NCBI GenBank assembly: GCA_964510585.1
Contig: CAZECW010000011.1
Location: 1 to 11,483, forward strand
Direction: 5' to 3'
From: an uncultured archaeon
Lineage (GTDB): Archaea; Asgardarchaeota; Jordiarchaeia; Jordiarchaeales; Jordiarchaeaceae
DNA length: 11,483 nucleotides
Every line of letters starts with the position of its first letter. The stretch's first letter is position 1. Below, piece by piece: positions 1-8,849 of the stretch. The notes under the pieces were generated by a model that ran no database searches, had not been told where the DNA came from, and saw nothing but the letters and a program-made list of their open reading frames with translations. A program made the translations under genes and the position numbers.

Positions 1-139
1 CCCCATGAGGGTGCCAACATAGACGCCGTTCCCTTTGAGGGAAGGGCGTGTTAACTGGGTGATGGCACACCCATTGCTTCGAAGGCTCCCGATGAGCCAG
101 AAGCAAGAATCTCCCGACTTTAGTCGCGGAGAGTGTCAA
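1..139 (+). mobile_element. Right end of an IS200/IS605-family (IS1341/IS605-type, TnpB-associated) element; left end and any tnpA/tnpB lie outside the window
   Basis: The sequence GAAT(107-110)-CTCCCGAC-TTTA-GTCGCGGAG(111-131)-AGTG-TCAA(136-139) matches the IS608-type right-end layout: guide tetranucleotide GAAT at the foot of a subterminal hairpin and cleavage site TCAA. One frame reads KQESPDFSRGECQ, typical of the region at or just after tnpB 3' ends. The lipoate-ligase homology on the - strand breaks at this TCAA junction. Confidence 0.85.
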
Positions 140-159
140 TTATTCCTGCTCTTCGATAA
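1..159 (+). ncRNA. Candidate TnpB omegaRNA (reRNA): 3' part of the scaffold plus a flank-derived guide of about 20 nt (140-159)
   Basis: Four consecutive hairpins are visible: ACGCC-G-TTCCC/GGGAA-G-GGCGT (23-49), TGGGTG/CACCCA (56-73), TTGCTTC..GGCTC/GAGCC..GAAGCAA (74-106) and the right-end hairpin (111-131). TnpB omegaRNAs are known to derive from the IS right end and take their guide from the 3' flank. Transcription is not shown by the sequence. Confidence 0.55.
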
Positions 160-506
160 AATTCTGTCACAATTTCTCCGGCCCAAATTTTTTCTGCCGT
201 GTCTATGTTGGGAAAGATATCTTTGGTAACCACTATCCCTGCTCCCATTCCCCCAGGGGGTGCCCATAATATTCCCGCTCCTGAGGGCCTTCTTCCAATT
301 AATATTTTGTCTCTCTTTATGTTTTCGTATTTTAGTCCATCCAAGTCCTCATATTTTCCCAAACTTACTGAGGGCCTGTCCCAAGTTAACACGAATAAAG
401 TGTCCGGAATCTTCTCTGCATCTCTCAGTCGGGGAAGCGAACCAAAAAGTACGAGTATTTCTACTCCTGTCATTCTATTATCCACAACAAATCTTGCTTT
501 AGTCAT
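140..506 (-). pseudogene. Lipoate-protein ligase A family (LplA/LipM-like) gene, 5' portion, interrupted by the IS at 140/139
   Basis: PDTLFVLTWDRPSVSLGKYE and IGRRPSGAGILW match the LplA 'P.vslG' and 'RR.SGGG' motifs. A GAGG RBS precedes ATG 506. After 122 native codons (...RRAGI) the frame runs into the IS end (IDTLRD*, TAA at 122-120). The catalytic-Lys half is not in the window. Confidence 0.75.
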
Positions 507-707
507 TCCTCTTCCTCTACAAAAATTAGTTGGTTCTAAAATGTTAGTTATAATTTTATTTAAACTTTTCCTTAAATTACATAGTTATAATTATTTTTGA
601 AGAGACCCAATTTACAAGTCAAAATGAGTAATGGAACACTACTAGTATATGAAGAATAAATGCACCTATACTGTAAAAAGGTGTGGAATCCTTTTCGTAG
701 TTAAAAA

Positions 708-724
708 AATTTAACCGTTAAATT
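708..724. promoter_or_regulatory. Palindrome AATTTAAC-C-GTTAAATT, candidate transcription-factor site
   Basis: Perfect 8-bp inverted repeat with a 1-nt spacer in the divergent intergenic region. AT-rich, so a chance match is possible. Confidence 0.3.
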
Positions 725-746
725 AAAATGTATCCCGCGTTATAAC

Positions 747-764
747 TGTTGTAATATTACAACA
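747..764. promoter_or_regulatory. Perfect 18-bp palindrome TGTTGTAATATTACAACA, candidate operator
   Basis: Exact dyad symmetry read from the sequence. It lies immediately upstream of a TATA-like CTTAAAAG (about 767-774) and about 75 nt before the aminotransferase start. Confidence 0.5.
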
Positions 765-837
765 TACTTAAAAGGCTCGAAAATCCTATTCGGGTCAAAA
801 GTGTTTCAATATTAACACTAAAAATAGGTGTACCCTA

Positions 838-2049
838 ATGAAAAGATCATTTGCAGAACTTTTCTCTAGCACTGCGAATAAGTTACAGGTTTCAGTGATT
901 CGCGAGCTTCTTAAGTTAACTCAGAAGCCGGAAGTCATATCCTTTGCTGGAGGATTACCTAATCCAGACGCCTTCCCAGTCCCTCAGATACACGAAATTT
1001 GCCCCAGTGTGATTGACAACCCAAACGCGCTCCAGTATGGAACTACGGAGGGTGTACCGGAACTAAGGGAAGCTCTCAAAAAAAGGATGGCTACGAAAAA
1101 TGTAAAGTGTGAAGTTGAAAACATTCAGATCACCTCGGGATCGCAGCAGGCATTGGACATACTGGGAAGAATATTGCTTAATCCCAACGACATTGTCCTC
1201 ACAACCTGCCCCACCTATTTGGGGGCCATTCAAGCCTTCGATTTTCAGAATCCAAGATATGAATTAGTGGAGATGGACGAACACTCCGTAATTGTGGAGG
1301 ACTTGGAGGCACGCCTAGAAGATATCCAAAAGAGGGGAGAACTTAAACGGTTAAAATTCTTCTATATAACACCGACCTTCCACAACCCCGCGGGAGTAAC
1401 CATCCCTGAAAAACGCCGGAAACAAATAATGGATCTCTGCAACGCATACGATGTTCTAATAATTGAGGACGACCCATACGGAGAGCTAAGGTACAGAGGA
1501 GTAGACCAGCCCTTACTAAAATCAATGGATACCGAAGACCGCGTAGTATACCTTAGCACCTTCTCAAAAATACTGGTGCCCGGCTTCCGCATCGCATGGA
1601 TGGTGGCACCCACCGAGCTTATCAAAAAATTCGTAATGGCCAAACAAGCAGTAGATCTCTGCACAACTACATTCACCCAATACATAGGAGCAGAATACCT
1701 TAGCCGGGGATACGTGGATCAACACATTAAAAAAATCAAAGAAATCTACGGAAGAAAAATGCATATAATGCTCCAATCTATGGCAGAATATTTCCCAGAA
1801 GAGGCGCGATATGCTGAACCCGATGGAGGAATGTTCGTCTGGGTGAGGCTCCCCGAGCACATAAACACCATAGAAATATTCCCCAAAGTCGTGGAAAAGA
1901 ACGTGGCATACGTGGTAGGCTCCGCATTCTATCCCAACGGAAAGGGACTCAACACCATGAGACTAAACTTTACACACCCCACAGACGAAAAAATCGAAGA
2001 AGGAGTAAAAAGGCTAGGAAACGTACTCCACGAAATACTTAAAAAATAA
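838..2049 (+). CDS. PLP-dependent aminotransferase class I/II (ARO8/LysN-like 2-aminoadipate/aromatic transaminase family)
   Basis: 403 aa. Motifs ISFAGGLP, LQYGTTEG, ITSGSQQALD, PTFHNPAG, EDDPYGEL, and STFSKILVPGFRIAW (PLP lysine). GGTG RBS at 827-830. Confidence 0.93.
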   Translation: MKRSFAELFSSTANKLQVSVIRELLKLTQKPEVISFAGGLPNPDAFPVPQIHEICPSVIDNPNALQYGTTEGVPELREALKKRMATKNVKCEVENIQITSGSQQALDILGRILLNPNDIVLTTCPTYLGAIQAFDFQNPRYELVEMDEHSVIVEDLEARLEDIQKRGELKRLKFFYITPTFHNPAGVTIPEKRRKQIMDLCNAYDVLIIEDDPYGELRYRGVDQPLLKSMDTEDRVVYLSTFSKILVPGFRIAWMVAPTELIKKFVMAKQAVDLCTTTFTQYIGAEYLSRGYVDQHIKKIKEIYGRKMHIMLQSMAEYFPEEARYAEPDGGMFVWVRLPEHINTIEIFPKVVEKNVAYVVGSAFYPNGKGLNTMRLNFTHPTDEKIEEGVKRLGNVLHEILKK

Positions 2050-7622: not shown

Positions 7623-8849
7623 CTAAATTACTCCTAGGTTGCGTATCCAGGGCTGGAGCTCTTCTCCCAATAAGTTTAGGACATTGCTTTTTTCCATATT
7701 GGGCAGCACGCTGGCTATGTAGAATATTTTATCCTCCCACTCTAATGGTTTGCAAACAATGATTTCGTTTGGTCCTAACTCTAGGGATAGGGTGCTGATG
7801 TTTAGATGGTAATTTTTGGTTAAGTTTTCCCCGAGGCATATTATTCCCATGGTGGCGGTTGTCAATACTTCTTTGGTATCTGATGAGTAATCTGCTATTA
7901 GTAGAGCCCTATTATCAAATAGCATCAAATGTGTGCTTCCCAGTAGGTCTCCATAGTCCTTCAGTATTTCCTCAATCACCGGTATAGTGCCAATGCTTTT
8001 CCTTAGGGCTGACGAAAAGCTCAGAAATAATTTATCGCTTCTAAAAATACTCGTGTTATCTATGTGGTAGCGATTGATGTGGTGCTTCCTAAAAAGCTTG
8101 GCAATGTCCCTTTTGAGCTGCTCGATTCTCTCCCCCTCCTCCTGTGACACAGAACCCTCTGAATCTGACTTGTGAAGAAAAACTGTAGTGTAGGGAGCTT
8201 CGCCCGCTTTATTGTAAATGCCAAGGATACTCTCAAGGTAGCTTAGCGCCTCATTGTACCTTTCATAATCTTGGAGGTCGAGTACAAAAATTAGCAAATC
8301 TGTGTGGGCGAAAATCTCTCCATTTCCCTCAAAGTACTTTGTCCTATATTGTCCCCTTCCACCCAAATCGTATAGTTCCACCTGCATCCAACCAAATAAA
8401 GCAGCTTCCTCTCTATGTAGGCCTTCGGTTGGTCCTGTTTCGGTGGGAATCTGCTGATTTTTGGCGGCGGGTTCACATTTTGTTAGTGTGTGTATGATTG
8501 CGGTTTTCCCCGCATTGTCCAGCCCGGCAAAAACTATTTTTTTCGGTTCCTTAAACTTTCCTTCACCGACCGCCACAAGAATCTTCGCCGCATATATCCA
8601 CTTCTCAAGCTGAGACTTTTTAATTCCCGTAAGTTGACTTAGAGATTTGGCGTCTTGCTGTGAAAGTTTCTTAACATTAACAATTTTGAGGTCTTTCAAG
8701 CTTTTGACAGTCTCAGAATCTATTCCTACAATGATTTGAGGCGAGGATTTAGGAATCTTCTCGACCTCCATACGCTCCTTGACTAGAAAACCTCTTAATC
8801 TCTCAAAACTCATAAAAGGGGCAACCCCCATTTCTAAACAAATATCCAT
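7623..8849 (-). CDS. Small GTPase (Arf-like G1, Rag-like G4/G5) with N-terminal helix-hairpin-helix-like domain and C-terminal roadblock/longin-like domain
   Basis: G1 GLDNAGKT (aa109-116), G2 GPTEG, G3 DLGGR, G4 HKSD, G5 TSI. N-terminal IVGIDSETVKSL..IVNVKKL..QDAKSLSQLTGIKKSQLEKW resembles RadA-N/HhH repeats. C-terminal helix then MLFDNRALLIAD resembles roadblock folds. The start may be the downstream ATG at 8813 (GGGGGT upstream). Confidence 0.85.
   Translation of the reverse strand: MDICLEMGVAPFMSFERLRGFLVKERMEVEKIPKSSPQIIVGIDSETVKSLKDLKIVNVKKLSQQDAKSLSQLTGIKKSQLEKWIYAAKILVAVGEGKFKEPKKIVFAGLDNAGKTAIIHTLTKCEPAAKNQQIPTETGPTEGLHREEAALFGWMQVELYDLGGRGQYRTKYFEGNGEIFAHTDLLIFVLDLQDYERYNEALSYLESILGIYNKAGEAPYTTVFLHKSDSEGSVSQEEGERIEQLKRDIAKLFRKHHINRYHIDNTSIFRSDKLFLSFSSALRKSIGTIPVIEEILKDYGDLLGSTHLMLFDNRALLIADYSSDTKEVLTTATMGIICLGENLTKNYHLNISTLSLELGPNEIIVCKPLEWEDKIFYIASVLPNMEKSNVLNLLGEELQPWIRNLGVI

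Follow-up and report, generated by a model that had tools for sequence, protein, structure and literature searches.

The first 139 nucleotides of the 11,483-nt stretch of Asgard archaeal DNA analysed here (the window) form the right half of a ~276-nt, protein-free IS200/IS605 element of the PATE kind. The element lies 3′ of a TTAC in an LplA-like gene, which it has split, and it carries what is by homology a TnpB omegaRNA scaffold, so that both its mobility and any use of its guide would depend on proteins supplied in trans. Taken jointly, these statements are in our judgement the likely explanation of the sequence. An earlier note, made from the letters of the window, had proposed an IS608-type IS200/IS605 right end next to an interrupted lplA, and its reading of the sequence stands: four hairpins, a GAAT, a TCAA ending at 139 and host sequence from 140 are all present where it placed them, the 20 nt that it gave for 140-159 are correct, and ends, target and tetranucleotides match those of IS608.

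The repeat was delimited in the genome's own assembly (3.78 Mb in 217 contigs, with 434 contig ends). Searching with window positions 1-160 returned 85 HSPs, and copies internal to contigs show a further ~140 nt of the repeat to the left of window position 1. The complete unit measures ~276 nt plus its TTAC target (~276-283 nt across delimitations), with the 283-nt copy on contig C62 serving as reference. Further copies of the terminal hairpin, which the earlier note had proposed to look for, are abundant: 29 full internal elements and ~44 broken by the assembly give about 75 in the genome, 95-100% alike. An assembly break explains why the window starts in the middle of an element, 88 of the 434 contig ends lying inside a copy; with about a fifth of all contig ends within it, the element accounts for much of the fragmentation of this assembly.

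Both ends of the element are sharply defined. TTAC closes all 90 of the 90 left flanks, and the right flank carries no repeat of it. On the right, the genome's right ends all (75 of 75) close with AGTGTCAA and give way to unrelated sequence, and similarity to window 1-160 always stops at 139, after ...GGAGAGTGTCAA, the flanks differing from copy to copy. AAAG on the left and GAAT on the right stand immediately 5′ of two look-alike bulged hairpins. These subterminal palindromes (left CCCCGAC...GTCGTGGGG, right CTCCCGAC...GTCGCGGAG) are direct look-alikes in the same orientation, the left-end hairpin on C139 and C62 having nearly the same sequence as H4, the last hairpin of the window's right end. 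From left to right the element consists of a left end with its hairpin, a short A/T-rich spacer and a ~125-170-nt multi-hairpin block that ends in H4 and TCAA; the spacer, which is found on C139 and thus lies outside the window, contains a TATA-like GGTATATAAATA that may serve as a promoter. End palindromes, a fixed target without duplication, the tetranucleotide code and a Y1 TnpA in the genome place the element among the IS608-like members of IS200/IS605, and a base-pairing role of the tetranucleotides at AAAG/TTAC and GAAT/TCAA is predicted from their identity to those of IS608.

The same unit has no terminal inverted repeats and no open reading frame, and so qualifies as a PATE as defined in PMC3119063; its consensus of ~276 nt is too short for a transposase and is present in many copies, as is expected of such elements. 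The earlier note had expected a tnpB in or near the element. There is none, and the copy contains neither tnpB nor tnpA, so that the fallback it offered, a non-autonomous copy, is the version borne out by this gene-less ~276-nt unit. The two frames that it had put forward as possible TnpB C-termini (stops at 19-21 and at about 54) are chance frames, the left end lying only about 140 nt upstream. A second gene-less variant of ~335 nt occurs at C58:28222-28557 and C107:6904-7234 with the same ends and core, and in it hairpin H3 is enlarged to ~80 nt and resembles the scaffold of a more distant relative on C81 described below.

The host gene is truly split. In the window a minus-strand frame at 120-506 encodes LplA-like residues 1-122 followed by six element-derived residues and a stop, and the insertion thus explains a truncated 'LplA' frame that an annotator would otherwise call a gene. 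C139 supplies both of the pieces that the earlier note had suggested seeking upstream, the left end and the gene's 3′ half. Its first 135 nt (C139:1-135), reverse-complemented, are the missing left half of the element; a single base (C) is absent between the contigs, and we infer the adjacency of C139 and the window's contig (C11) from these two contig ends. C11:506-135 aligns with residues 1-124 of an uninterrupted 364-aa orthologue from a sister genome at 94% identity, and C139:139-861 aligns with residues 124-364 of the same protein at 92%. The relatives, likewise named in the earlier note as a place where positions 1-139 might turn out to be native, are free of that sequence: orthologues in three sister genomes of the same genus run continuously across the insertion site. 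Joining the flanks with TTAC retained restores the frame (...RRAGI-SNVWYKHPGD...), and since this works only when TTAC is counted once, as host DNA, TTAC is the target and was not duplicated. At the insertion spot this genome reads AGTAAC, versus AGAGAC or AGCGAT in the two sister orthologues read. The matching left half and 3′ gene half, the many copies and the relatives without 1-139 therefore all favour a real insertion, and one that is fully resolved in an Asgard archaeon, with both ends, the target and the empty-site sequence (from sister genomes) known.

What the intact gene did is less certain. The uninterrupted orthologue scores 51.7 bits against Pfam LplA-B_cat (cut-off 27) with a weak Lip_prot_lig_C match, and the window fragment alone reaches 18.9 bits, under the threshold. 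Lipoate-ligase activity is accordingly only putative for a gene that is one of about 18 paralogues. This 3.8-Mb genome holds about 18 LplA-B_cat proteins of ~350-400 aa, examples being C94:26209-26814, C173:67120-67728 and C139:17227-18315, and most score well under typical LplA values. The family is unusually expanded, and it is unlikely that all of its members are lipoate ligases. The rebuilt IS-free junction (24 nt) was sought as an exact match in metagenome and genome contig collections, and the filled junction (25 nt) in the metagenome contig collection; neither gave a hit in these collections, which possibly do not include this genome itself.

Table 1. Features of the element end and of the interrupted gene in the window.
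Feature	Position	Strand	Basis
Right half of ~276-nt protein-free IS200/IS605 element (PATE)	1..139	+	Own-genome matches, repeat delimitation, C139 join
Hairpin H1 of the omegaRNA-like scaffold	23..49	+	Fold; helix kept by compensatory changes versus IS copies
Conserved core AACTGGGTGATGGCACACCC, including hairpin H2 (56-73)	53..73	+	Alignment and fold
Hairpin H3: outer stem 74-80/100-106, inner stem 84-88/94-98	74..106	+	Fold
GAAT, right-end DNA guide tetranucleotide (GR) for TnpA, 5′ foot of H4	107..110	+	Equals IS608 GR (PMC5934647)
Hairpin H4, right subterminal imperfect palindrome: bulged stem, UUUA loop at 119-122	110..132	+	Fold
TCAA, right-end cleavage site; last base of element A139	136..139	+	Genome-wide right ends; equals IS608 CR
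Flank, predicted omegaRNA guide by position (16-20 nt)	140..159	+	Antisense to codons ~116-122 of the LplA-like gene
5′ part of LplA-like gene, codons 1-122	140..506	-	Orthologue comparison; frame 120-506 extends 6 codons into the element

The right half of the element is strongly structured. As RNA, window 1-159 folds at an MFE of -62.8 kcal/mol (z = -4.28; 0 of 200 dinucleotide shuffles equal it) into four successive hairpins, H1 to H4 (Table 1). The core AACTGGGTGATGGCACACCC is near-invariant across all 15 aligned relatives, H3 differs in length between relatives, and H4, besides being the right subterminal palindrome, would be the guide-proximal stem of the predicted omegaRNA.

That this block is a TnpB-type scaffold, as the earlier note proposed, is upheld by homology, by position and by compensated structure. 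Window 16-139 is ~76% identical to C8:254-366, a stretch that overlaps the last ~23 codons of a tnpB and runs to the right end of that element, which by its placement is the canonical position of an omegaRNA. The single-stranded linkers AACATAG, GTTAACTGGG, GGCACACCCATT, CAAGAAT and GAGTGTCAA are conserved, H1 and H3 differ in sequence between the gene-less (MITE) and IS versions with pairing retained (the outer stem of H3 reads TTGCTTC/GAAGCAA in the window and TTGGAGG/CTTCCAA in IS copies), and 32 of the 36 differences between the two versions fall in helical columns that stay paired. The same four hairpins fold in MITE, IS and sister-species versions. Across a ten-sequence alignment 88% of cells are standard pairs, a share that drops to 36-53% if the 3′ partners are shifted by 1-3 columns, and five pairs have changed on both sides. 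Such compensatory changes give moderate support for the structure, coming as they do from a small sample of related sequences. Given the unmodified MAFFT alignment, in which H3 is misaligned owing to its varying length, RNAalifold found H1, H2 and H4 in part only, and per-segment folds with a hand-set structure on a short-form alignment were therefore used. The MFE structure also pairs 17-20 (ACAU) with 133-136 (GUGU) in both MITE and IS versions; the 3′ side of this predicted pairing is near-invariant and its 5′ side varies without compensation.

A covariance model (R1) built from the ten-sequence short-form alignment finds matches in 28 of 151 genomes of the phylum. At about 10 of its best 28 loci outside this genome a full-length TnpB frame terminates within the match, two of these with tnpA just upstream, and the remainder look like more gene-less elements. 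In the sister genome G004 the scaffold of a MITE closely matches that of the genome's own tnpA-tnpB element; the whole scaffold is thus kept in gene-less elements of both this genome (G000) and G004, so that its retention is recurrent. Rfam gave no match for window 1-1000 at E <= 1 and holds no curated TnpB omegaRNA model, and the assignment therefore rests on homology to tnpB 3′ ends; ARAGORN, run alongside, found no tRNA. On this evidence window 16-139 is best read as an orphan omegaRNA scaffold with no tnpB in cis.

Proteins that could serve the element are encoded elsewhere in the genome. Its tnpA-tnpB elements likewise follow TTAC, their left end is ~90% identical to that of the mini-element, and the two kinds have the TTAC/TCAA and AAAG/GAAT code and the hairpins in common. 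A left end with an intact Y1 TnpA (HUH motif and catalytic Tyr) and the 5′ part of tnpB is found on C7, C169 and C162, the C7 TnpA scoring 128.9 bits against Y1_Tnp in a Pfam scan, and the 3′ end of tnpB with the right end is found on C8, C54, C45 and C152. The cognate tnpB is incomplete in the assembly, about 87 codons being missing between the 5′ and 3′ pieces. On C7, tnpB lies in two frames (C7:237-707 and 2-424, minus strand) owing to a one-base frameshift relative to the C169 copy, and this split gene is a pseudogene or an assembly error.

A more distant relative on C81 (C81:5075-6787, minus strand, equal to L044:1318-3030) is a 571-codon open frame that fuses a Y1 TnpA remnant to a full TnpB and reads through the right end to TCAA. 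The TnpA remnant is without its N-terminus and has GYIQLF where intact copies read DHLHLF (the HUH motif). In the scaffold-linked TnpBs, namely that of C81 and the full-length homologues L122, L104 and L098 from sister genomes, Gly replaces the canonical RuvC-II Glu, the stretches reading KIVVGNLK, KIVLGRLR and QLVVGDLT. We considered the C81 TnpB as nuclease-dead through this Glu-to-Gly change and dropped the idea, the same Gly being present in the full-length homologues of sister genomes and a rearranged clade having been described (PMC10691335). RuvC-II-rearranged TnpB clades are predicted to be active (Altae-Tran 2023, PMC10691335), and the Gly-substituted TnpBs of this genome and its sisters match such clades and are thus probably active. 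We found no experimental test of the Gly-for-Glu RuvC-II arrangement in the literature consulted.

The earlier note had taken the guide from position 140 onward, and by position only the predicted guide is indeed window 140-159, from the lplA flank. In the reconstructed empty site TTAC stands just before window 140-159, and an IS-free allele, which the note had named as the target, would therefore offer a valid TAM and target. The predicted TAM is TTAC, the classic IS608 target, and the new TAM hoped for in the earlier note did not materialise. Elsewhere in the genome the window guide has no near-match, the best being 14-15 nt with a mismatch and without TTAC. Two other copies have guides matching 20 of 20 nt at a second site, that of C12 on C154 and that of C62 on C75. 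Empty alleles were considered for both and rejected, since in each case the flanking sequence has been duplicated and the left flanks differ. At C154:2124-2321 the C12 copy's right flank (C12:8956-9153) is found again at 98%, behind another left flank that ends in TTAC, and this right flank may be a second TTAC-targeting element at whose TTAC the mini-element inserted. C75 likewise has the 52 nt that lie 3′ of the C62 copy, there preceded by TTAC-AA.

Together these observations suggest a sequence of events in which a ~276-nt IS608-type PATE inserted 3′ of TTAC in an LplA-like paralogue and split it after codon ~122 without duplication. The Y1 TnpA of the autonomous relatives would move the element in trans by single-strand peel-and-paste, as their shared ends suggest. 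Transcription of the scaffold that continued beyond 139 would add about 16-20 nt of lplA flank to the RNA as its guide, and TnpB from the autonomous copies could load this RNA in trans and cut IS-free TTAC plus flank, favouring re-copying; for this last step we follow Meers et al. 2023 (PMC10055086) and their homing model. Compatibility with the TnpB of the nearest tnpB-linked scaffold in this genome, which is only ~76% identical, is putative. More tentatively, and at somewhat less than even odds in our view, the ~75 copies could be dispersed stand-alone guide-RNA genes served in trans by a Gly-type TnpB that a handful of autonomous elements encode, each copy policing its own empty site. If this were true, an Asgard archaeon would harbour a TnpB system that is naturally multi-guide and acts in trans, its genome would supply about 75 natural pairs of guide and target for tests of TnpB homing in archaea, and a thermophile-derived nuclease of the Gly-substituted RuvC-II arrangement would be experimentally approachable.

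The chief competitor to this reading accepts a PATE moved by TnpA and holds that its hairpins are an inert relic of a parental tnpB 3′ end, the 'guide' being mere flank. Copies that are 95-100% alike could owe their conservation to a recent burst and not to selection, and the nearest tnpB-linked scaffold in the genome is ~24% different, both of which would suit a relic. TnpA, however, needs only the subterminal hairpin and the cleavage site (PMC5934647), and yet the whole ~115-125-nt scaffold persists in distinct families of mini-elements in G000 and in G004; moreover, the MITE/IS differences are concentrated in helices that are still paired, in sequence that no longer codes for protein. We consider the relic unlikely for these reasons, and a scaffold still able to act as an omegaRNA the better account of the hairpins.

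Two further alternatives concern the origin of positions 1-139 and fare considerably worse. Homologous scaffolds do follow tnpB at other loci, and the window could on that ground open inside a full autonomous IS with tnpB just upstream of position 1, but all 29 internal copies have the same ~140 nt upstream, ending in the left end and TTAC, the matching left half and the rest of the gene lie on C139, and the tnpB-following right ends (C8 type) belong to a distinct, ~76%-identical subfamily; we regard an upstream tnpB as very improbable. Still harder to credit is that the LplA-like gene natively contains positions 1-139, or that misassembly produced them. The location of the stretch at a contig end would invite such a suspicion, against which stand three sister-genome orthologues (92-94% identity) that continue through the site without an insert and ~75 copies in unrelated contexts. 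A gene-less element inserted at TTAC is thus the reading carried forward into the comparison below.

Elements of this kind have been described before. The first definition of PATEs dates from 2011 and concerned the archaeon Haloquadratum walsbyi (PMC3119063), they 'often encode omegaRNAs' that require use in trans, and omegaRNA-bearing examples were noted in Geobacillus stearothermophilus (Meers 2023, PMC10055086); IS200/IS605 elements have been reported in >65% of Asgardarchaeota genomes (PMC13343696). Like omegaRNA-bearing PATEs, the present element has subterminal palindromes and no ORF, terminal inverted repeats or target duplication, is multi-copy with ends common to autonomous IS of the same genome, and retains a guide-RNA scaffold that would need TnpB in trans. 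Unlike them, it resides in a hot-spring Asgard archaeon (Jordarchaeia/Freyarchaeota) with about 75 copies in one family, its partner TnpBs have Gly for Glu in RuvC-II, and it is known here from sequence alone. Helicobacter pylori IS608 has the identical CL (TTAC), CR (TCAA), GL (AAAG) and GR (GAAT) (PMC5934647), bulged subterminal hairpins and insertion 3′ of TTAC without duplication, but IS608 is autonomous with tnpA and tnpB, both of which are missing here, and apart from the motifs there is no detectable sequence similarity between the two.

The omegaRNA of ISDra2 from Deinococcus radiodurans, seen by cryo-EM (PMC10097598), offers a structural comparison. It too is a multi-stem scaffold of ~116-130 nt that ends at the right end and takes its guide (16 nt in ISDra2) from the flank, the general plan being four stems in about 116-125 nt. 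In both, the stem nearest the guide bears a UUUA loop ~18-21 nt ahead of it, and brief pairing of the last pre-guide bases with the 5′ part of the scaffold is predicted here as well. The two differ in TAM (TTGAT versus TTAC here), in sequence, where no similarity is found, and in the lack of a protein in cis here; the closing pairing in our element (17-20 with 133-136) is only predicted. Because the principle has already been published, the finding is confirmatory and not new, and what this copy adds is a fully resolved gene disruption.

Elsewhere in the window, the product of a minus-strand gene at 7626-8849 has 408 aa, and in it a weak helix-hairpin-helix match precedes a small GTPase domain of the Gtr1/RagA-Arf type; GTPases of this eukaryote-like kind are typical of Asgard archaea.
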